Shown here: piece after piece, positions 1 through 9,939 of the stretch
Layout: every line of letters begins with the position of its first letter
Numbering within the stretch: the first letter of the stretch is position 1
Assembly: GCA_029548865.1 (NCBI GenBank)
Contig: JAKPMO010000011.1
Coordinates: 1 to 12,034, forward strand
Direction of reading: 5' to 3'
DNA: 12,034 nucleotides
From: Caldisericota bacterium
Lineage (GTDB): Bacteria > Caldisericota > Caldisericia > JAAYUI01
Made by a program: the position numbers and the translations under genes
The notes under the pieces: generated by a model
The model's database searches: none
The model's input: the letters and a program-made list of their open reading frames with translations, nothing else
What the model was told of the DNA's origin: nothing

Positions 1-1
1 C

Positions 2-3000
2 AGCTTTACGCTCAAAGTGCCGGAGGATGTTCCCTGCGGAGACATCCAGCCAGGTGAGTGCCTCAAGGTTTTTGCAAAAAAAGAAGGTAATGTGCTTGTG
101 GCTTCAGAGGCCGACATTGTCCAGCCACCGAAGGACGAAAAGTTCTACAGGCTTGCTTTTGTCACTTCAGTGAGCCCGCTCAGGGTTACTGTTCCTGGTG
201 GAAACACATTTACGCTTGTGCTTCCAAAATACTTCAAAACCCAGCTGAAGATTTCTGACGGGCTTGATATTTGGGGGGCAGTTTCAGGTTCGACAATAAA
301 AAGCCCGAGGGTTGTTTCTGCGCCAAATGCCGGAAAATACCTCAAGGGAGAGGTTGTTGGCGTTGTTTGCGAAAAGAAGTCTGTGCTTGTAAACGAGATT
401 TCAAGCAAAACCACGGTTGTGCTTTCGGACCTCGCAAATTGTGAGAGCATCCAGTTCGGCGAGTGCTATTCTTTCTTTGGGGTACAGACAGAAAAAGAGT
501 TCCTTGCCTGCACACTTGAAAAAACCGAGTGTCCAAAAGGTTGCCAGGGAGAAACTTACGAGGGCACCATTGTCGAAAAAGACTGTCAGGCTGGCACTTC
601 GAAAATAAGGACTTCTACCGGGGATTACCTGTCAGTCAAGCTGCCACAGGGATTTGACTGTTCATCACTCAAAAAAGGTCTTTGCCTCGAGATTTGTGGA
701 AACCTTGAGGGCGGCGTTATCACTGCCCAGAAAATATCTTTTAAGGATTGCAGGGAACCGGTTTGCACCGGCAAGCTTGTCGAGGGGCTCATTGTTTCCA
801 CTAACTGCAAGGACGGCACATTCAGGTTTGCTACCAAGGATGGAGAGCTACAGCTCCAGATGCCGGAGACCCAGGAGTGCGAGGACGTTCCTGTTGGCTC
901 ATGTGCGCAGGTTTGCATTGTTGGTGAATCGAAAACGTATTACATAAAAACCATACCCTGCTCCAAATTCGGGTCTGTCCTTGAAGGGACAATCATACAG
1001 TCAGTAAAGGACTCATACACGGTCCAGACCAAGGAGGGAAATGAAATCCAGCTCCTCTGGAAGGAAGGTCTTTCCCTTGGAGACTGCATTATTGCGCTTG
1101 GCAATTACCTCCCTGACAGCACGACACAATTCAGGGCAGACATCGTTGCAAAGACCACCTGCGGTGGTGTTGAAAACATCAGCGGGTCAGTAACTCTTGT
1201 TGATTGCGCCAAAAAAACCATCGAGGTTGCAACAGAATCTGGCACCCAGGAGATAAACCTGCCAGAAGATGCCGACTGCAAGACATTTTTGCCTGGAGAT
1301 TGTGTTTTTGTGAGGCACAAGGACGGCAAGACCCTCATCAACAAAGTTGATTGCCCGCAGACCAAAAGGGCCCATTTTGCAATGTTTGTTATTGGTAACA
1401 ACAAAGAAACAGTCTATGGGACTGATCTTGCCACACTTGATCGGTTTGAGTGTGTTGGGCAGAAGCCGCCTGCCGCTGGTTCGGTCGTGATTGTCCAGGG
1501 ACATCAGGTGTCATCCAGAAAAGTTCTCCAGGCCACCTTTACCCCATATGACATAGGCTGTGTCCAGACAAAACCAGTTTCAGGGAAGCTCATAAGCTAC
1601 AGGGAAGAAACAAGGGCAGGAACGATCGAGGATGTCTTTGGCAACAGCTATGTGATGATTTTCCCTGGCGACAGGACCTTTGCTGTTGGCGACTACCTTT
1701 CGCTGAAAGTCCAGGTCTATGACACCGGCCTTGGCACAAGGTGCATGATAGCCACAGAACTTTACAAATCATCTGAAGGTGGCATTGCGCAGGCCAACGT
1801 AACAGGCGTCATATTTGCAATAGACCCGGTTGAAGGTGCTGCGCTCCTTCATGTTTCAAGCGGAGAGAATATCGCAGTCATGCCTTCTGATCCAGAGACT
1901 TTGAAGATCGTCAGGGTGGGCGACTGCGCAAATGCAGTTGGTCGCTATAGAAAAGGTTCAATGGTTGTTGAGAAGGCCACGCTCACTGTTTCGGACTGTT
2001 TTGGTGGAACGCTTGGCAGAAATTTCACTGGCGTCATTGTTGGCGTCAACTCGACTGAGAAAACCATAGATGTCTATTCCGACAAGGGTGGCGTCTATGA
2101 GGTGACCGTGGAATCTGTTTCAATGCTTACAGGTCTCTCGCTTGGCAACTGCGTTGCCGTTTCGGGCATCCTTATGGATGAAACAGAAACCAGGCTCCTT
2201 GGCAAGACAATTGCCAGAATTGATTGCAAGCAGGGTGGTTTTGAACCAATCTCCATAGAGGGCAGGATCGTCCTTCTGGACACGTCTTCCAAGCAGGCGC
2301 AGATCGAGTCGATTGACGGTATGAAATGGACTGCCTACCTTGAACGCCCCGATCTCTGCACTGGGCTAAAGGTTGGAACAACTGTAAGGTGTTGCGGAAA
2401 ACTCCAGGCGAAACAGGGAATTATTGCCAAGGCATATCTCAAGAAGGCAGTTCTTCCGACTTCCAGGTGGTCGGTCATCGGCAAGGTCACAGAATCTGGC
2501 AATGGCACATTCAAGCTTGAGGATTCAACCGGAAGGTCCTGGGACGTGAAACCGGACAATGGTTTGCCTGCCGCTGGCCAGAGGGTTCTCTGCGTTGGCA
2601 ATGTTCCGCCTGATGGACTTTCTGCAATAGACCATGCCACATGGACGGACATTGGTGGTTGGCAGGAGCCAAAAACCTCAATTGTTGGCACTGTTTTTGG
2701 CGTTTCTTGCGGCATGGACAAGCTTTTAATCAGGGACGACCTTCTTATGATGCACTCTTTGAGGCTCCCGCACGCCGGTTTCTGTGGCTCGTTCACCATT
2801 GGCGAGTGTGTCTCCGTTTTGGGCAGGGTGCTTGCCAACATACCCAACCTCACCAAGGTCGCCGAGGTCAAACCATCGACTGGAAAATGCAACATACAGA
2901 CGGTCACCGGCTGGGCAATAGCAAGGTCCACCAAAGAAAGATATGGAATCATACAGGGTTTTGATGGGTCAACGTACAGGCTTGGGTTTGATACGGAGCT

Positions 3001-5338
3001 GATGACCGGAAAATTCTCGATTGGCAGTCTCTACAAGGCGAGGGGAAGGTTCCTTTCCACATCACCAGACACACTAAAGGTCGAGCAGATCGATTCGGTT
3101 TCACAGCCTGTCTATCAGACGGTTGGCAGGATCGTTTACATTGATAACAGTGATTTCTACCTTCAGGAATCATCGGGAAGAGTATTGAAGGTCAAAGCTC
3201 CAGGGGGTGTTTCCCCGTGGACAGCCTGGCTGTCCCAGAGCTTCTCGGTGGCTGGCAAATTTGAAGAGGGTGGCGCGTTCCTGGCTGAATCAGTCAACCC
3301 GATCGATACCGAGAGGATTGCTGTCGAACTTGAAGGTGAAGTTATAACAGCATCTGATACTGAAGTGATAGTGAAGTCAAAACAGGGTGGAATATGGAGG
3401 GCAGAAGGCTCATTTGGCGCAAAAGCGGGCGACAGCGTTTATGTTGTCGGGACTGCCGACTCAAACAGATGGTGGACAATCGCTTCTGCGAGGCTGACTG
3501 TTGTTGGGGGCGATGCCCCAACCAGCCAGATAATGTCCTGGGGCATTGTTGATTCAACCGAATGTGAAAACAACAGGCTCAAAATAAAGCTTGATGATGG
3601 AACAGTATACGAGATTTACCCGGAAGATCTTGGTGTCTGTGAAGGTTTCACCCAGGGTGAAAGAGTGCAGTTCTCTGGAGTGATTTCGCACGACAGAGGC
3701 AGGACCGTGCAGGGTGCGAAGCTTGCCAGATCTGGCTTATCAGGCGCAACAAAGACAATAGTTGGCATAATAACCGAGATCTCTTGCACCTCCAGGGTTA
3801 TAAAAATGAGGGAGGAATTTGCTCAGAGTGGTGGGCAGGGGCCGATATGGACAATGGGTCTCGCAAAAGATGCAGAGTGCGAGAAGCTCAAGATTGGAGA
3901 CAGGATCAGTGTAACTGGCGATCCGGTGCCCTCACAGCAATATCAGCTTGAGGATTGCAAGATCATAGTGATAGGTGAGGAGATAAAGGAGCTAAAGATA
4001 ACAGGAAAGCTCCACACTCTCAATTGTGCCTCGAATATCATGATAATTGAATCTGACGGCAAGCTGTACAGAGTGTTCCCATCACAGGAATCAAGATGTT
4101 CAGACCTTTTCTCAGGGGACACGATTGAGGTGACCGCAAAGGTTTCGATCTTCAGGAAATATGTTCTCAATGATGCAACATGGAAGAAGATCTATGACAA
4201 GGACGCATTCAAGATATTGCAAGGAAAAGTTGACACCGCAACCTGCCCTGGCATCAGGTTCATGGATTCGACAGGTGAATACTGGAGGGTCAACATCAGG
4301 GAAGATCAGCCTTGCAACCTTCTTGATAATGGCATGGAGATAACGTTAAAGGGCGTGCTTGACCTTTCTCAGGACCACCTCATGCACAAGGCCGAAATAC
4401 TGGACCTTATGAGGCCAAAAGTTATCTACGGAACAATTGACGACATATCCTGTTCCGAAGGAAAACTTGTTGTCGTGGACAAGGCAAACTCCTATTGGGA
4501 AGTTGTAATGGAAACATCCTTTGGCGATTGCATTGCAAACAAATTCTCCAAGGGCGACATGGTGCAGGTCAGTGGTTTCCAGAACATGCTTTACAAAGAC
4601 TCCCCGATATATTTTGGGAAAGTGGAAGGATTTGGCAATGAAACCGGAATGATACCAATGGATTTCATTGGTGAGGTCCTGAATACTGATTGTGGCAAAG
4701 GCAACATCCAGGTTCGTTCCGGGCACACCACCTGGATAGTGACTATTCCGGATGGTTTTAATTGCAACAGTCTAAAGCTTGGCGATTGGGTCAGGGTTGA
4801 GGGCGGCAGGGAAGACTGGCCAAAGAAGATCTGTTTTGGAAGCAAAATTGAAGTGACTGTTGCCACAATGATCGGATTTATTTCCGAGGCCAATTATGCC
4901 AAAAACGAGCTCACAGTTGTCGAGATAAAAAAGCCTGAAATGAAGTGGACCGTTTCGCTTGCCGACACAAGCAAGCTGACATCATACAAAAAGGGAATGT
5001 TCATAAAAATATCTGGAACAGTCAACCCTCCGAACACAAGACGCATTACCGGCGCAAGCGTTGTGGCCACATTTACCCAGATAAAGGGGAAGGTCACAAT
5101 GGTTGATCACAACAAACAACTGATCAAAGTAACCGGCACTGATCTCAAGGAATATACATGCTATGTCAAAACCGACTGGGTCAATCTGGAAGATTACAAA
5201 CTTGATCAGAATATCATTGTGACAGGAAATATAACGCAAAGCAAAGACAAAACAGCAGAGATGAAAGAGTGTTTGCTCGAAGATAACAATCCGTTTTTCA
5301 ATATGATGAGAGTGTTGAAAAAACTTGCAACACGGTAG
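2..5338 (+). CDS. Giant tandem-repeat protein (5'-truncated by the window edge), about 25 OB-fold/DUF5666-like repeats, Cys-rich, probably exported
   Basis: The frame is open from base 2 (agc ttt acg ctc aaa gtg = SFTLKV) to TAG at 5336-5338, so the GTG at 17 is probably internal (mid-repeat, no RBS visible). Recurrent unit: x-G-x-[IV]-x4-C/x ... hydrophobic strand ... G-x-x-[YW]-x-V-x-L-P ... C-x-x-L-x-x-G-[DE]-x-V-x-V-x-G ... A-x-x-I, e.g. ETYEGTIVEKDCQAGTSKIRTSTGDYLSVKLPQGFDCSSLKKGLCLEICG and MDFIGEVLNTDCGKGNIQVRSGHTTWIVTIPDGFNCNSLKLGDWVRVEG. The CDS itself is near certain; the fold and family are inferred. Confidence 0.85.
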   Translation, partial: SFTLKVPEDVPCGDIQPGECLKVFAKKEGNVLVASEADIVQPPKDEKFYRLAFVTSVSPLRVTVPGGNTFTLVLPKYFKTQLKISDGLDIWGAVSGSTIKSPRVVSAPNAGKYLKGEVVGVVCEKKSVLVNEISSKTTVVLSDLANCESIQFGECYSFFGVQTEKEFLACTLEKTECPKGCQGETYEGTIVEKDCQAGTSKIRTSTGDYLSVKLPQGFDCSSLKKGLCLEICGNLEGGVITAQKISFKDCREPVCTGKLVEGLIVSTNCKDGTFRFATKDGELQLQMPETQECEDVPVGSCAQVCIVGESKTYYIKTIPCSKFGSVLEGTIIQSVKDSYTVQTKEGNEIQLLWKEGLSLGDCIIALGNYLPDSTTQFRADIVAKTTCGGVENISGSVTLVDCAKKTIEVATESGTQEINLPEDADCKTFLPGDCVFVRHKDGKTLINKVDCPQTKRAHFAMFVIGNNKETVYGTDLATLDRFECVGQKPPAAGSVVIVQGHQVSSRKVLQATFTPYDIGCVQTKPVSGKLISYREETRAGTIEDVFGNSYVMIFPGDRTFAVGDYLSLKVQVYDTGLGTRCMIATELYKSSEGGIAQANVTGVIFAIDPVEGAALLHVSSGENIAVMPSDPETLKIVRVGDCANAVGRYRKGSMVVEKATLTVSDCFGGTLGRNFTGVIVGVNSTEKTIDVYSDKGGVYEVTVESVSMLTGLSLGNCVAVSGILMDETETRLLGKTIARIDCKQGGFEPISIEGRIVLLDTSSKQAQIESIDGMKWTAYLERPDLCTGLKVGTTVRCCGKLQAKQGIIAKAYLKKAVLPTSRWSVIGKVTESGNGTFKLEDSTGRSWDVKPDNGLPAAGQRVLCVGNVPPDGLSAIDHATWTDIGGWQEPKTSIVGTVFGVSCGMDKLLIRDDLLMMHSLRLPHAGFCGSFTIGECVSVLGRVLANIPNLTKVAEVKPSTGKCNIQTVTGWAIARSTKERYGIIQGFDGSTYRLGFDTELMTGKFSIGSLYKARGRFLSTSPDTLKVEQIDSVSQPVYQTVGRIVYIDNSDFYLQESSGRVLKVKAPGGVSPWTAWLSQSFSVAGKFEEGGAFLAESVNPIDTERIAVELEGEVITASDTEVIVKSKQGGIWRAEGSFGAKAGDSVYVVGTADSNRWWTIASARLTVVGGDAPTSQIMSWGIVDSTECENNRLKIKLDDGTVYEIYPEDLGVCEGFTQGERVQFSGVISHDRGRTVQGAKLARSGLSGATKTIVGIITEISCTSRVIKMREEFAQSGGQGPIWTMGLAKDAECEKLKIGDRISVTGDPVPSQQYQLEDCKIIVIGEEIKELKITGKLHTLNCASNIMIIESDGKLYRVFPSQESRCSDLFSGDTIEVTAKVSIFRKYVLNDATWKKIYDKDAFKILQGKVDTATCPGIRFMDSTGEYWRVNIREDQPCNLLDNGMEITLKGVLDLSQDHLMHKAEILDLMRPKVIYGTIDDISCSEGKLVVVDKANSYWEVVMETSFGDCIANKFSKGDMVQVSGFQNMLYKDSPIYFGKVEGFGNETGMIPMDFIGEVLNTDCGKGNIQVRSGHTTWIVTIPDGFNCNSLKLGDWVRVEGGREDWPKKICFGSKIEVTVATMIGFISEANYAKNELTVVEIKKPEMKWTVSLADTSKLTSYKKGMFIKISGTVNPPNTRRITGASVVATFTQIKGKVTMVDHNKQLIKVTGTDLKEYTCYVKTDWVNLEDYKLDQNIIVTGNITQSKDKTAEMKECLLEDNNPFFNMMRVLKKLATR

Positions 5339-6137
5339 AAGTTGGTGTAGATGCCCCTGAAACGAGGCCAACACACCCGCCACCAGACGCAGTTTTTATC
5401 TGGATGAGCACTTCTTCGCCAAGTTCTTCGGGGCCCTCTATCCAAAAGGTTTGGGCCCCTTTTTGTTTTGAAAGCTGGTAGAGTCTTTTTGTATTGGCCG
5501 AAACCTTGCCACCAACTACGACAACAGCCTTGCATTTTCCGGCAACTTCAAGCAACTGTGCCTGTCTTTCCCTGGTTGAAGTACAGATGGTGTTTTCAAA
5601 AAGGAGAAGGTCAGTGTGCCCGGTCAGTTCGCAGGCAACGTCTCTGAGCAGCGAGGTGTCTTGCGTGGTCTGGGAGAGCACAGCTATTTTCTTGAAAAAG
5701 CCAATTTCCATGGCCTGGCCTATATTACCTACGACAATAGGGTCAACTGCAAAGCTGGAAACTGAGACGACCTCCGGATGGTGTGAATCACCGACGATGA
5801 TTACCTTGTAACCCTCGTCGGAAAGCTCCGCCACCCTTTTTTGCAGTCTTTTGACAAATGGGCATGTACAGTCAATTATTCTGATGTTTGGAAACCCATT
5901 GTATACATCTTTTGGGGCGCCATGTGCGGTTATGGCAACTATGCCTGATGTTGACTGGTCTGGAGATTCAATGGTATGGACGCCGTTGTGTTCCAGGTTT
6001 GCAACCACCTGGGGGTTATGGACAAGGTGCCCAAGGACCTGAACCTCACCAGTCTTCGAGAAGGATGTGACTTCGTCAATGGCCCTCTTTACACCGAAAC
6101 AGAAACCCTGGCAGGCTTCGGGCAGGACGACCTTCAT
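5298..6137 (-). CDS. ispH: 4-hydroxy-3-methylbut-2-enyl diphosphate reductase (IspH/LytB), MEP pathway
   Basis: 279 aa with the IspH signatures GFCFGVKRA, LVHNPQVV, TAHG, DCTCPFV, HPEV, SQTT, NTIC, GG-x-x-S-A-N-T-x-x-L and GASTP. All three Fe-S cysteines are present. The start overlaps the upstream stop (ATGA, 6137-6134). Confidence 0.97.
   Translation of the reverse strand: MKVVLPEACQGFCFGVKRAIDEVTSFSKTGEVQVLGHLVHNPQVVANLEHNGVHTIESPDQSTSGIVAITAHGAPKDVYNGFPNIRIIDCTCPFVKRLQKRVAELSDEGYKVIIVGDSHHPEVVSVSSFAVDPIVVGNIGQAMEIGFFKKIAVLSQTTQDTSLLRDVACELTGHTDLLLFENTICTSTRERQAQLLEVAGKCKAVVVVGGKVSANTKRLYQLSKQKGAQTFWIEGPEELGEEVLIQIKTASGGGCVGLVSGASTPTSTVLQVFSTLSSY
5430..5469 (+). terminator. Candidate intrinsic terminator for the giant repeat gene, lying antisense within ispH
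   Basis: GGGGCCC (5430-5436) pairs perfectly with GGGCCCC (5453-5459). The 16-nt loop contains a small CC-AAAA-GG sub-stem. TTTTTGTTTT (5460-5469) follows immediately, and the stem starts about 90 nt after the stop at 5338. The loop is long for a typical terminator. Confidence 0.45.
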
Positions 6138-7168
6138 GATTCCCTGTAGACCAGCCCTTCTATGAGTTCACCAAGGGATTTCTTGAGTTTCTCGTCAGTT
6201 GGTATTGAGGCCAGCAAAGACAATGCCTTGGAGGTATATTCCCTCACCTGTGACATTGCGTATTCTTTAGCGCCAACCACCTCAAGGCAAGAAAGGAGTG
6301 ATTCCGCGTCTTTCTGCGATATTTCCTTTGAATAAGCTTCCTGGATGAGCTTTTTTGTGGAGTTGCTGCCATTTTCCATTGCGTATGAAATCGGAAGTGT
6401 TTTTTTGTGGCGTATAAGATCGAAACCGACCGACTTGCCCGTCTTTTTTGGATCACCCCAGAGGCCAAGGATGTCGTCTTGTATCTGGAATGCCATGCCG
6501 GCCGATTCGCCGACCTGCTTCATCTGTGGCGCAAGGTTCCTCAGCTCTTCCTTTGCCTGCAATGCGAAACCGCAGGAGAAGCTTGTACTCAGGAGACAAG
6601 CGGTTTTTGCCCTTGCCATCTGGAGGTATTGTGCCGTGTAAACCACGTCCTGTTTTTCGTACAGGATATCAAGGTGCTGGCCTTCAAAGACCCTCTGGGT
6701 CATCTCCTGGAATGATTCATACCATTTCATGGCTGTTCTTGGGGAGAGGTGAACGCAAGCATTTCTTGCGCACTCAAACGAGAGCGCCTCCGCAATGAGG
6801 GCTGCATTGAGCGCCTGTGGTATGCCAATGACTTTCCAGAGTGTTGATCTTCCCCTTCTGGTTGTGTCGTTGTCCTGTATATCATCAATTATCAGGGTGA
6901 AGTTGTGGAACAGTTCAAGCGCTATCGCGATGCTGGAAGAAAATTCCCCGTCGCCAATGTATTTTGCCGTCATCAAAGGGATTGAGGCCCTCAGCCTCTT
7001 TCCACCCTTTGGCTCTTTCAGTGGCTCGAACTTGTCATTTACAAGACCTAGTTGGTAGGCTACGTATTGAAAAAGTTTTTCAGGTTTCTTCGAAGATAGA
7101 AGCTGTGCAAGGTCTTCGTTTGTCTTTTTGACGTATGGCCTAAGTATGGTGCTCAGGCTTGTGGGCAT
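6134..7168 (-). CDS. Trans-polyprenyl diphosphate synthase, type-I geranylgeranyl diphosphate synthase (IdsA)-like
   Basis: 344 aa with GGKRLR, ELFHNFTLIIDDIQD (FARM) followed by RRG, GQHLDI, KTA, FQIQDDILG (SARM variant) and TGKSVGFDL...KKTLP. A purine-rich RBS-like GGAAGGGG lies upstream, and the start overlaps the upstream gene's stop (TAATG at 7170-7166). Confidence 0.93.
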   Translation of the reverse strand: MPTSLSTILRPYVKKTNEDLAQLLSSKKPEKLFQYVAYQLGLVNDKFEPLKEPKGGKRLRASIPLMTAKYIGDGEFSSSIAIALELFHNFTLIIDDIQDNDTTRRGRSTLWKVIGIPQALNAALIAEALSFECARNACVHLSPRTAMKWYESFQEMTQRVFEGQHLDILYEKQDVVYTAQYLQMARAKTACLLSTSFSCGFALQAKEELRNLAPQMKQVGESAGMAFQIQDDILGLWGDPKKTGKSVGFDLIRHKKTLPISYAMENGSNSTKKLIQEAYSKEISQKDAESLLSCLEVVGAKEYAMSQVREYTSKALSLLASIPTDEKLKKSLGELIEGLVYRES

Positions 7169-7620
7169 TACTGCTGTCCCCTTCCAGTTGCTTTTGCCAT
7201 AGTATTATCACTTTCTGGCAGTAAAGCAACACCCTCGCAAGACCATATTTCATCCCAAACCTCGGTGTCAAGCACCAGAGAGCAGTTTTTCAGCATTACC
7301 TCGGTTGCTTCAAAATCTGGAAGCTCCCTGTTTGGATGGAACTGGAATTCTCCTCTGACCTCGATAGTATCGCCATTGGAATAGGGTGTTACCGGTTTTC
7401 CGCACGGGAGTTTTATTACAGCGTTGACTGGGAAACCACAATCTATGGTGGCGATGAAAAGCTCGTCCAGGAGAACTGACTTCTCAATCTTGCCAGTTAC
7501 CGTGGTTTTATAGGGATTGGTTTTCTTGGATGCCAGGTCCGCTTCCTGTAAGAGTTGCCCTGTGCCCTCCGAAAGATTGCTGTCAGAGAGCTTGCACAAC
7601 AATACCAGACTGCCCTTCAT
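7168..7620 (-). CDS. Hypothetical protein with one OB-fold-like unit; start uncertain (ATG 7620, 150 aa, or ATG 7740, 190 aa)
   Basis: It fills the gap between the prenyl synthase and priA, and its TAA overlaps the next ATG by 1 bp, which suggests translational coupling. It contains TTVTGKIEK...IDCGFPV...LP...YSNGDTIEVRGEF. I prefer the 7620 start because the 7740 start leaves only 12 bp between divergent genes and runs over promoter-like sequence. Confidence 0.7.
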   Translation of the reverse strand: MKGSLVLLCKLSDSNLSEGTGQLLQEADLASKKTNPYKTTVTGKIEKSVLLDELFIATIDCGFPVNAVIKLPCGKPVTPYSNGDTIEVRGEFQFHPNRELPDFEATEVMLKNCSLVLDTEVWDEIWSCEGVALLPESDNTMAKATGRGQQ

Positions 7621-7696
7621 GGTGTCCACAGGGGAGTTGAATGTGGCGCCCAGAAATCTTTGCCACGATGAAATCACGAAACAAAACATAAGCCAG

Positions 7697-7724
7697 AGTG
7701 TATAGAAAATTAATGCCTTGAAAA
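7697..7724 (-). promoter_or_regulatory. Weak candidate sigma70-type promoter for the hypothetical-prenyl synthase-ispH operon
   Basis: On the - strand, TTTTCA (7724-7719), a 16 bp spacer and TACACT (7702-7697) lie in an AT-rich stretch upstream of ATG 7620. The match to consensus is only partial. Confidence 0.3.
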
Positions 7725-7746
7725 GGGAATTTTGGGGCATTAGCCT
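7718..7746 (+). promoter_or_regulatory. Candidate sigma70-type promoter for priA-def-guaA
   Basis: TTGAAA (7718-7723), exactly 17 bp, then TAGCCT (7741-7746, TAnnnT pattern). The predicted transcription start is around 7753. Confidence 0.5.
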
Positions 7747-7752
7747 TTAGGT

Positions 7753-9939
7753 GTGAACGTGCATGTTATGGTCGAGGGGCTTGAGCTGACCTATTCAGTC
7801 CCTGAGTCTCTTTCAGGCAGAGTGGTACCAGGTTGCCTCGTTCTTGTCCCGTTAAGGAACAGGACGGCAAAGGGTGTGGTGGTGGGTATTGGTGATGAAG
7901 AGGCCGGGATCGAACTGAAAGAGATGGTCTCGCTTGTTTACGACACACCCGTTATTGATGAGGAGGGCATAGAGGCGACCATTGTTGCAGATTCACTTGC
8001 GTTTTCAAAGGCTGGCACGACGCTCTCCGATAACCTCTGGATGCCACCATCGCCAAGGATTGAGACAAAGGTTGAAATTTTGGGTGAATGCGAGTTTTCG
8101 CCATCAGAAAAAACCCTGTTTGAAAAGATTGTCCAGCTTGGGGATGATGCAACGCTTGGCAGGCTCAACCATGCTTTGGGCAAATCGAGGGTGACATACG
8201 CTCTCAGGGGACTTGTAAAAAAGGGTGCAATACGGCTTGTGGAGGTGGTTTCTGCACCATTATTGCCAAAACCGAAGCTCCAGTACGAAGCCGACCCGGA
8301 CGTTGACTCATCAGTCAATGAAAAAGCACCTTTCTGCTCTTCCATGTCTTCACTCTCGAAAGCAAGCGGGGTGTCGCTCTCCAAGATAAAAAAACTTGTG
8401 CTCTCCGGGAAGCTCAGGCTTGTAGAAAGTGCAAAACCAGGCTCTGTCCCGAAACAGGAAAAACCAGGGTTTGATGTGGAATTTTTTGAAGGCCTTGTGC
8501 TTGAAAAAAGGGTTGCTCTTTACGCTGATTGGGCCAGAGGGCACATGGCTTCTGGCCAGAGCATGGCGATAATCGCCCCGGACGCCTCACTTTGCAGGGC
8601 GATACACAAGGAAATAAGCAAAATTGTTGATGATGGCGTCTATCTTGCAACAGGCGATGGCTCGATGGCCAACGACAGCAGGCTCTGGGACGCACTCAGA
8701 TCTTCCCTGCCATGTGTGGTGATTGGCATGGGGCAGGCGCTGTTTCTGCCTTTTGCAAATCTTTCAAGGGTTGTCGTTGATGAGCCGGCATCTCCACATT
8801 ACGAACAGGACCAACCTGGCAAACTGAGGCTGGGCGCCCTTGCAAGGGTGAGGGCAAAAGTTGGCAAATGCAATCTCAGCTTGGTTGGGGCCCCATCAAC
8901 GCTGGAAGCCCTGAAAGAAGGTGCCACTCCTGTATCGCTTCCCAACCGCGTCGAGGTCGTCAATATGCTGTTCCAGGCAGGCGCCAAAAACCAGCCGCTG
9001 GTCTCGGAGGGCATGGTTTCAGCGATTAAAAAGGAGCTCGAAGCTGGCAGACCCTCTGTGGTCCTGATCGCCAGAAAAGGCTATTCAAATTTTGTCTATT
9101 GTGATGAATGCAACGAGGTCATTTCTTGCCCGACATGCAAGGTGCCACTCATGTATAGTCTCGCAACGGGCAAGGTCTCCTGCAGGTTCTGTGGCTATGA
9201 GGCCAAGGCGCCAAGTACCTGCCCGAGCTGTGGTGGTGTGTCTGTCCTGTTTAAGGCAGGTGGGACCGAGAGACTCCACTTAGAGCTCGAGGAGAGATTG
9301 CCACAGTGCAGGATACTGCGGGCCGATGCAAACACAAAAAATGCTTTTGCAAACATAAGGAGTTTTGGTCTGCCAGGGGATGTTCTTGTCGGCACAACCA
9401 TGGTTCTGGACAGGGCCGATTTTTCAAATGTCAGGCTTGCCTGCATAGCAAGCCTTGACGGTGTGATGTCGATGCCCGTTTTTTCGGCTTCCCACAAAGC
9501 CTATTCGCTTGTGGCCATCCTTGCCGGCAAGCTTTCATCCGGCAGAGTCTTGCTCCAGACATACATGCCGCACCACCCGCTCATCAAATCGCTTGTTTCC
9601 TCTGATGCCAGCACCTTCCTTATGCAGGAGCTTGAGGACAGGAAAGAATCATTTTATCCTCCATTCTCCCAGGTACTTTGGTGGATTGTCACTTCCAAAG
9701 AACAGGGCGAGGCGGAAAGATGGGCAAAGTCTTGCTATGAAACCCTGCAGGAACTTGTGAAAGATGCCACCATTTTGCCTCCAAACGCAACCTATTATCA
9801 CCGCTTGAAGGGGGAGTACAGATGGGATATACTTTTAAAGATAAAGGACCTTGAAGGTGCAGTTCCGTCCCTCTGGGAGGCGATGAAGCTGTGTAGAATG
9901 AAAGGAATAAAGCTGGAAGTGGTGAATCCCAACCAATGA
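7753..9939 (+). CDS. priA: Primosomal protein N' (PriA) homologue with degenerate helicase motifs
   Basis: 728 aa. The N-terminus matches the PriA 3'-DNA-binding-domain pattern (LTYSVP...PG.LVLVPLRNRTAKGVV). Also present: ARKGYS followed by four CxxC motifs (CDEC, CPTC, CRFC, CPSC; 9100-9231), GTERL, DVLVGT, GRVLLQTYMPHHP, ELEDRK..FYPPFS and a C-terminal R..GEYRW. It sits directly upstream of def, a common priA-def linkage. An in-frame TAG at 7741 limits the start to GTG 7753, GTG 7759 or ATG 7768. Confidence 0.92.
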   Translation: MNVHVMVEGLELTYSVPESLSGRVVPGCLVLVPLRNRTAKGVVVGIGDEEAGIELKEMVSLVYDTPVIDEEGIEATIVADSLAFSKAGTTLSDNLWMPPSPRIETKVEILGECEFSPSEKTLFEKIVQLGDDATLGRLNHALGKSRVTYALRGLVKKGAIRLVEVVSAPLLPKPKLQYEADPDVDSSVNEKAPFCSSMSSLSKASGVSLSKIKKLVLSGKLRLVESAKPGSVPKQEKPGFDVEFFEGLVLEKRVALYADWARGHMASGQSMAIIAPDASLCRAIHKEISKIVDDGVYLATGDGSMANDSRLWDALRSSLPCVVIGMGQALFLPFANLSRVVVDEPASPHYEQDQPGKLRLGALARVRAKVGKCNLSLVGAPSTLEALKEGATPVSLPNRVEVVNMLFQAGAKNQPLVSEGMVSAIKKELEAGRPSVVLIARKGYSNFVYCDECNEVISCPTCKVPLMYSLATGKVSCRFCGYEAKAPSTCPSCGGVSVLFKAGGTERLHLELEERLPQCRILRADANTKNAFANIRSFGLPGDVLVGTTMVLDRADFSNVRLACIASLDGVMSMPVFSASHKAYSLVAILAGKLSSGRVLLQTYMPHHPLIKSLVSSDASTFLMQELEDRKESFYPPFSQVLWWIVTSKEQGEAERWAKSCYETLQELVKDATILPPNATYYHRLKGEYRWDILLKIKDLEGAVPSLWEAMKLCRMKGIKLEVVNPNQ

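Follow-up and report, generated by a model that had tools for sequence, protein, structure and literature searches.

What kind of protein is encoded by the long open reading frame (ORF) at the start of a 12,034-nt contig from a Caldisericota bacterium (assembly GCA_029548865.1, contig JAKPMO010000011.1), and what might it do for the cell? The stretch analysed, referred to below as the window, is an entire contig (C26) of a 1.8-Mb genome that is 93% complete (G000). Its ORF (2..5338, forward strand) encodes 1778 residues, with an open 5' end. The assembly breaks inside the gene, and the first 141 nt of the window overlap exactly with the 3' end of another contig, C11. Once C11 and C26 are joined, the gene starts at C11:7016 and its product counts 2,243 residues. 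This join was confirmed independently by two loci on single contigs (L013 and L014) and by a database protein (P0005), 100% identical. A first-pass annotation, made from the letters of the window, had suggested that the array of repeats seen there continues upstream, which was borne out by the C11 overlap, the full protein having four further units. The complete gene encodes a stalk domain and 28 units in fixed order, with paired cysteines; it is under purifying selection and is single-copy in each genome of its family. The units are predicted to adopt the oligonucleotide/oligosaccharide-binding (OB) fold. The best explanation of these features, to which we give about an even chance, is a surface fibre tethered to the wall and stiffened by disulfides, with conserved barrels for binding beyond a variable proximal spacer. 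The layout of the protein (in residues of the full product) and of the gene (in window positions) is as follows.

Residues 1-27: Sec-signal-like leader, recognised by eye.
Residues ~28-115: FN3-like motif pattern, recognised by eye.
Residues ~121-250: Cu_amine_oxidN1 domain (PF07833, "stalk"), 98.4 bits in the full protein.
Residues 254-2228: 28 OB-like units of 56-78 residues each, by our own parse of the whole protein.
2..5338, forward strand: 3' part of the giant gene (residues 466-2243), which starts on contig C11 (L001:7016).
1..141, forward strand: exact 141-nt overlap with the 3' end of C11, at the assembly break inside the gene.
2..130, forward strand: C-terminal part of unit 4.
134..1783, forward strand: units 5-12, ortholog identity 24-35%.
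1787..3103, forward strand: units 13-18, the most conserved block (40-62%, 8 orthologs).
3107..3514, forward strand: units 19-20, without cysteine and less conserved (30-32%).
3524..4858, forward strand: units 21-26, the second conserved block (40-50%), with one conserved cysteine pair each.
4859..5290, forward strand: units 27-28, the final barrels, with no domain afterwards.
5291..5338, forward strand: short C-terminal tail, which differs between orthologs.

The part encoded on C11 supplies the leader, the FN3-like domain, the stalk domain and four units, while the window contains the last part of unit 4 followed by the complete units 5-28. The latter agrees with the one partial and 24 complete units counted in the first-pass annotation, whose remark that no other domain is recognisable holds for the window but not for the full protein, with its stalk and FN3-like region upstream. 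This FN3-like region has neither a Pfam match nor a sequence match in the PDB; searched together with the stalk part against the sequences of solved structures, it gave nothing (best E 0.87). Units 6-10 are rich in cysteine, with 1-3 putative pairs each, and divergence is greatest in units 11-12. In unit 17, 28 columns are invariant, and units 17-18 are net basic. No sortase motif or membrane helix was seen in the C-terminal tail, whose coding sequence shares 41 nt with the 3' end of ispH, a convergent gene (5298-6137, reverse strand).

The array is a real repeat. Profile tests were used to establish this, because the lengths of the units vary too much for a period of about 70 residues to be detected directly. 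The periodicity check called for at the outset failed by ungapped autocorrelation (nothing stands out around 70; the best z, 3.0, is at lag 216) and by self-BLAST, in which off-diagonal matches were absent from both the real and the shuffled sequence, but succeeded with profiles and leave-one-out shuffles. A profile built only from paralogous units encoded on another contig scores the giant protein at 50.5 bits, whereas the array region shuffled 100 times reaches 5.3 bits at most and the reversed sequence 1.7 bits. When each unit is left out in turn, 25 of the 28 (22 of the 24 whole units of the window) score above every one of the 200 shuffles; the exceptions are units 1, 11 and 12, reached by 10, 2 and 16 of them, respectively. 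The units are also old, as the lack of near-identical DNA repeats had suggested: they are on average 17% identical to one another (maximum 37%), and direct repeats in the DNA do not exceed 23 nt. The tree of 57 units from three proteins of genome G000 is for the most part unresolved, with long branches and support for 5 of 54 inner branches, and no duplication history is claimed.

Fold models cover units 6-8 and units 13-28. AlphaFold2 predicts five strands per unit in both, with a predicted local distance difference test score (pLDDT) of 87.5 and a predicted template modelling score (pTM) of 0.59 for units 6-8, and values of 75.7 and 0.41 for units 13-28 (13 sequences). The latter model places 0-8 residues between units and lets the last strand of unit 27 run into the first strand of unit 28. 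A structure search with the model of units 6-8 against 48,161 solved chains gave a top 50 made up of OB folds, each match spanning about one unit (Z 10.2-8.5, root-mean-square deviation (rmsd) mostly 1.4-2.8 Å over 64-72 residues). Domains of MCM, SSB, PolC, RPA and tRNA synthetases come first (Z 10.2-9), the PriB OB fold is also among the best, and exported OB folds were matched over 65-66 residues, namely PilY2 (3tdq, Z 9.0), YobA (4qy7, 8.8) and CcmE (2kct, 8.6). As modelled, the units have the five-stranded closed barrel of the OB-fold superfamily, in which a helix often lies between strands 3 and 4, and the OB barrels proposed in the first-pass annotation are, at Z values of about 10, well matched by these structures. 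These matches are near-ties at 9-23% identity and, therefore, inform on fold only, not on function. The unit profile also matches the small subunit chain of an RPA complex (E 6.6e-4), presumably RPA14. Foldseek retrieved only bS1 and unrelated beta-propeller proteins with the 16-unit model (template modelling (TM) score ≤0.10), the ESM Atlas offered leads under 0.9 only (DUF1344, DUF5666, DUF3221), and the NCBIfam scan of the window gave nothing usable.

The kinship with DUF5666 (PF18914) noticed by eye was recovered by its profile, whose summed score is 34 bits for the window part and 27.4 bits for the full protein P0005 (gathering cut-off 27), with a match at E≤0.05 in 6 of the 57 units. No single stretch within the giant protein passes as a DUF5666 domain, and five other orthologs lie below the cut-off, four of them without a match and one at 17.3. 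The giant protein is a distant relative, not a clear member, of DUF5666.

The family comprises 11 genomes from three genera, including two single-contig genomes, and was compared with the phylum as a whole (93 genomes). Searching with units 13-18 (E≤1e-10) finds one match, and no more, in every one of the 11 family genomes and none in the 82 others. Full-length orthologs count 2,242-2,267 residues at 35-96% identity and are colinear unit by unit, and each unit varies little in length; at 35-47% identity, the order of the units, the length and the locus are still conserved. Besides the two conserved blocks, the identity among 8 diverse orthologs is 24-35% in units 1-12, 34-36% in units 27-28 and 63% in the stalk. 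The ratio of nonsynonymous to synonymous substitution rates (dN/dS), measured against three close relatives of which two are identical in the counts, is about 0.05 (0.03-0.08 in all seven segments), which indicates purifying selection even at the distal end. In all 11 checked loci that reach that side, a HAD and a MEMO-like gene, the same ones each time, directly precede the giant gene, and in most loci the giant gene is followed downstream by ispH, a polyprenyl synthase gene, priA, def and guaA.

The survey with a repeat profile that had been recommended extends this picture: against 1.84 billion representative sequences, the unit profile retrieves 5,168 proteins at E≤0.001. Among the best 150 of these, every protein with at least 20 scored stretches has a stalk domain. 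Long arrays without a stalk exist as well, in the form of DUF5666 arrays of 8, 12 and 16 scored units (16 in P0033). Genome G000 encodes no fewer than four long OB arrays joined to stalk domains, and the paralogous group with the same head as the giant protein varies in length from 1,328 to 2,998 residues. An apparent expansion in the family (50-61 unit matches per genome against 0-2 in the 82 others) was set aside as biased, because the profile was built from genome G000 and favours its kin; with the neutral Pfam model, there are 1-7 matches per family genome against 0-4 outside, and the outside matches are listed in frames of at most 616 residues.

The paired cysteines had not been remarked on in the first-pass annotation. 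Cysteines at profile position 14, after strand 1, and near position 39, before the capping helix, occur together in 36 of the 57 units, one without the other in 0 and 2, and neither in 19 (p=3e-13), and a second pair, made of cysteine 47, which opens strand 4, and a C-terminal cysteine after strand 5, shows the weaker distribution 15/10/6/26 (p=0.002), the two pair types being mutually independent (p=0.26-0.59); because the 57 units are paralogs, these p-values overstate independence. Across 8 orthologs, 58 cysteine columns are kept in at least six, and 56 of them can be assigned by position to 28 pairs, with spacings of 22-51 residues rather than CxxC; four pairs have been lost as pairs, in 5 events. 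When placed on the models, each pair type would join neighbouring strand ends of the general OB topology. Cysteine content also goes with the stalk: among the best 150 relatives, its median is 0.0% in the 126 without a stalk and 5.5% in the 24 with a stalk-profile match. Disulfides in the repeat units are thus a well-supported prediction.

Regarding location, the leader is basic then hydrophobic in all full-length orthologs, as judged by eye and with a crude hydropathy rule. The stalk domain (PF07833, cut-off 24.2) reaches 98.4 bits in the full protein, 78.9 in the C11 part and 72.6-82.9 in five orthologs. It recurs in 68 of the roughly 1,500 ORFs of genome G000, of which 63 pass the signal rule, compared with a background of 31%; SLH domains occur in two frames only. 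Most stalk matches of this genome (55 of 76) are C-terminal, whereas that of the giant protein is N-terminal. The domain is likely a general surface anchor of this lineage, and may be its main one; a portable anchor is expected to stand, as it does here, at the N-terminus of some OB arrays and at the C-terminus of others. PF07833 is common in cell-wall hydrolases and surface proteins, according to PMC4137172, and it is placed among predicted wall-binding modules in a further paper (10.64898/2026.09.23.753664). A sortase motif, SLH, LysM and the other anchors named in a study of fibrillar adhesins (10.1101/2020.12.07.414375) were sought in the giant protein without success, and PF07833 is the candidate anchor.

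The first-pass annotation had left open a surface or a periplasmic site. The leader and the stalk favour the exported, surface alternative. No Omp85/BamA was found in the 93%-complete genome, and Caldiserica is named, in the literature consulted, among the lineages that have lost the outer membrane; an exported protein would, therefore, face the wall or the outside, and the periplasmic option is not supported. The codon bias of the giant gene toward ribosomal-protein usage, a proxy for expression, is at the 78th percentile, so that the giant is unlikely to be the main surface-layer (S-layer) protein. Two other giant exported proteins of 3,007 and 3,111 residues (C20:111995-121018 and C20:126191-135526) are at the 99th percentile and constitute better candidates for the main surface layer.

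As a surface fibre, the protein would be exported by the Sec pathway, as suggested by the leader seen by eye and by the crude hydropathy rule, and its putative anchor, the N-terminal stalk domain, would tether it to the cell wall. The 28 barrels would then project head-to-tail, and internal disulfides would likely stiffen the chain. The head-to-tail arrangement is favoured by the OB topology, which puts the two ends of a unit on opposite sides. The extended length would, by our own rough estimate, be about 80 nm (28 × ~3 nm). Units 13-18 and 21-26 likely bind a fixed, conserved surface ligand, glycan or protein, while units 1-12 may be mostly spacer. The chain as a whole is hardly a free spacer, because its length, colinearity, locus, single copy (11/11) and dN/dS of 0.03-0.08 are all kept.

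Several observations weigh against this fibre. The overall shape of the 16-unit chain gains no support from its model (pTM 0.41), in which the units are not confidently packed. Pfam scans of the full protein found no known adhesive domain; a pAdhesive_17 match in 1 of the 57 units (E 0.036) is at chance level. Homodimerisation, not wall binding, is what was shown experimentally for a PF07833-like domain (PMC10432803). Some cysteines do not fit the pairing: C253 is lost in the host lineage, which retains C120, and C485 and C2222 have no evident partner. A known disulfide-making membrane enzyme was not found either: DsbB and VKOR pass the cut-off in none of the 93 genomes, MauE in one outside the family and in 0 of the 11 family genomes, and no Thioredoxin_4/DsbA-like match is present in genome G000. 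Even cysteine counts are found in 115 of 278 exported proteins (41%) and in 358 of 703 cytoplasmic ones (51%), as well as in 23 of 62 stalk proteins. This comparison, run twice with a home-made, crude signal rule and noisy for cysteine-rich proteins, thus gives no support for general disulfide formation in genome G000.

Other possible oxidants were considered. A weak VKOR match in genome G068 was dismissed, as it is under the cut-off in a 450-residue, seven-helix protein far longer than VKOR. The single CcdA/DsbD gene of genome G000 lies beside two thioredoxins, in a cluster that resembles, by eye, an operon for arsenic resistance, and it was discarded because CcdA/DsbD is a reducing system. 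Five exported or membrane-tethered thioredoxin-like CxxC proteins, two of them tandem near-duplicates, were recognised by motif in this genome (C29:26127-27649, C17:48436-49152, C16:11374-12102, C19:38516-39058) and are candidates for thiol-disulfide exchange outside the membrane. Structural disulfides are reported in 13 species without DsbB, VKOR and MauE in a 2026 preprint (10.64898/2026.03.05.709764), and for a clostridial DsbA, recycling by small thiols has been described (PMC12453122). Because of these precedents, the oxidant gap is a known one and is not unique to this lineage.

Four other readings have to be set against the fibre. It is somewhat unlikely that the protein serves as a structural strut, ruler or minor S-layer or sheath subunit of the envelope, with barrels that contact one another or other envelope proteins and a unit number that sets a distance. 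Such a role would fit the fixed number and order of units across three genera (the paralogous group varies from 1328 to 2998 residues), the strong purifying selection even at the distal end, the position of the basic units 17-18 among acidic ones and the ability of a stalk-like domain to dimerise (PMC10432803). Nevertheless, the codon bias (78th percentile against 99th for the two other giants) makes a main layer unlikely, and the long model, with its pTM of 0.41, contains no confident packing between units. An unlikely, bolder proposal is a molecular ruler of fixed length: in this family, the 28 barrels, locked by disulfides from an oxidative pathway without DsbB, VKOR or MauE, would act as a strut that determines how thick an outer layer is or how far away a partner cell lies. 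Release into the medium, or loose attachment, is improbable: the protein would then be a scavenger, a multivalent chain that captures polymers or peptides and feeds uptake, with a stalk that only dimerises. OB folds are, in general, ligand-binding barrels, the exported PilY2, YobA and CcmE were matched at Z 8.6-9.0, and dimerisation is the role shown for one PF07833-like domain (PMC10432803). However, no cluster of transporters or hydrolases travels with the gene, whose conserved neighbours are mostly housekeeping genes, and the units differ widely, without a surface motif common to the array.

The two remaining readings concern what the units bind. If the cysteines were metal ligands or a redox buffer instead of disulfides, the protein would form a metal-sequestering or oxygen-scavenging coat. 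The CcmE match (Z 8.6) would agree with this, since OB folds of the CusF/CcmE type handle metals or heme, as would the failure of DsbB, VKOR and MauE to pass the cut-off in the family and the absence of an even-cysteine bias. This is quite improbable, as the two main pairs are gained and lost independently, unlike a four-cysteine site, the pairs are 22-51 residues apart and not CxxC, and units 21-26 have one pair each and few histidines. Very improbable, finally, is an extracellular chain that binds single-stranded DNA or RNA, in the manner of a tethered SSB or RPA. Its appeal lies in the best structural matches, which are the OB folds of SSB, RPA, PriB and MCM, and in the profile match to the small subunit chain of the RPA complex (E 6.6e-4), but those structural matches are near-ties at 9-23% identity that tell of fold and not of function. 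In 8 of 8 orthologs the array carries a net negative charge (-20 to -138), a result at odds with the extracellular nucleic-acid binding suggested in the first-pass annotation. By mean charge, only units 5, 15, 17, 18 and 27 are net basic, the other 23 of 28 being acidic or near neutral; each unit has 2-10 aromatic residues without a common pattern, and the unit alignment contains no surface motif common to the whole array. All full-length orthologs, moreover, have a signal-like leader, unlike the cytoplasmic SSB and RPA.

Among known systems, the tandem DUF5666 proteins are similar in being exported and made of small five-stranded barrel repeats, but 28 units, paired cysteines and fusion to a stalk are not seen among the stalk-less relatives listed. 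The stalk domain is shared with the PF07833 proteins, and the amine oxidase catalytic domain is absent, as in the surface proteins of PMC4137172; the cargo, by contrast, is a non-catalytic OB array of nearly 2,000 residues instead of a hydrolase or a superoxide dismutase. Fibrillar adhesins (10.1101/2020.12.07.414375) resemble the giant protein in being long, exported and built of tandem small beta domains, with a putative anchor at one end. Its 28 units with short linkers match the tandem small domains that make up their stalk, and its shape would probably be elongated too. On the other hand, its far end has no recognised adhesive domain, and its repeats share 17% identity and keep a constant number. 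It would function as a fibrillar surface protein does, while lacking the adhesive domain by which fibrillar adhesins are recognised. The terms "OB-fold", "DUF5666" and "Cu_amine" do not occur in the main text of that paper, tables and supplements aside. PilY2, YobA and CcmE have the same fold outside the cytoplasm, but as single domains and not as chains, and the giant protein has no Pfam match to their families. Cytoplasmic proteins with several OB folds in a row (ribosomal bS1, RPA, Unr, Mpa) are the top Foldseek matches; no whole chain can be superposed, however (TM-score 0.06-0.38 by query, rmsd 5-28 Å), and the giant protein is likely exported, acidic and far longer. No published description of it was found in a search that covered neither subscription journals nor supplements. 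The earlier claim of an undescribed system was too strong, given the cysteine-free DUF5666 arrays of 8-16 units, and what is new is the fixed layout of 28 units, the pairing of the cysteines and the fusion to a stalk.

Other genes of the locus and of the genome complete the picture. Four paralogs of the giant gene were delimited:

L003:7542-11528, reverse strand: OB array of 1,328 residues, 5.3% cysteine, N-terminal stalk.
L004:6339-10601, forward strand: OB array of 1,420 residues, 15 units, C-terminal stalk, clear DUF5666.
L002:4232-5608, reverse strand: paralog of 458 residues that resembles the last units of the giant protein, without a stalk.
G000 C19:88488-93887, reverse strand: OB array of 1,799 residues, 8.2% cysteine.

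Three genomes of another genus have, directly after the giant gene, an extra stalk-domain gene of 677-890 residues with a similar N-terminal head (L009:16799-19249, L010:16874-18907 and L011:12301-14973). At locus L007 of a close relative, identity is 94% for the giant protein but 81-89% for the neighbouring HAD, MEMO-like and ispH products, a contrast possibly due to recombination or to unusually strong constraint. Within the window, ispH (LytB) and the polyprenyl synthase gene (5298-7168, reverse strand) are convergent with the giant gene; the 41-nt overlap of the 3' ends of ispH and the giant gene exists in the host genus and not in other genera. The ORF at 7168-7740 (reverse strand), kept at the locus in most relatives, encodes a 190-residue protein whose N-terminus is hydrophobic and which matches nothing in Pfam or NCBIfam. 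An exported, beta-rich protein of about 500 residues (L001:4031-5671, reverse strand), without a Pfam match, is syntenic in all loci reaching it, at 22-30% identity between genera. Both neighbours look like OB units by eye, but hhalign gave probabilities of 11% and 0.6%, respectively, and they were not counted. The PriA-like gene (7753-9939, forward strand) has the 3'-binding, zinc-ribbon and C-terminal domains, and its product is possibly helicase-dead, as a Pfam match to the helicase domain is absent even at E≤1.

Relatives are labelled Caldisericia or Caldisericales, and those sequencing runs for which a habitat is given are sludge metagenomes. No phage match was found. Metatranscriptome contigs at 99% identity, from three runs that belong to three studies, span most of the window; they were not used as evidence, because contigs cannot show transcription or its level and DNA may be present. 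The host organisms appear to be uncultured, which limits direct tests.

For the DUF5666-like repeat, which has no assigned function and is mentioned in tables only in the literature examined, the giant protein provides a fold, a likely location and a conserved layout. Surface stalks are usually thought of as Ig-like repeats in variable number, whereas a fixed OB chain conserved unit by unit points to position-specific roles. If the molecular ruler, unlikely as it is, proved true, OB folds would be a new building block of bacterial surface fibres, and these proteins would be the largest known clients of an unknown disulfide-forming system. With about 28 conserved cysteine pairs, several cysteine-rich paralogs and no DsbB, VKOR or MauE, the lineage offers a large test case for disulfide formation.

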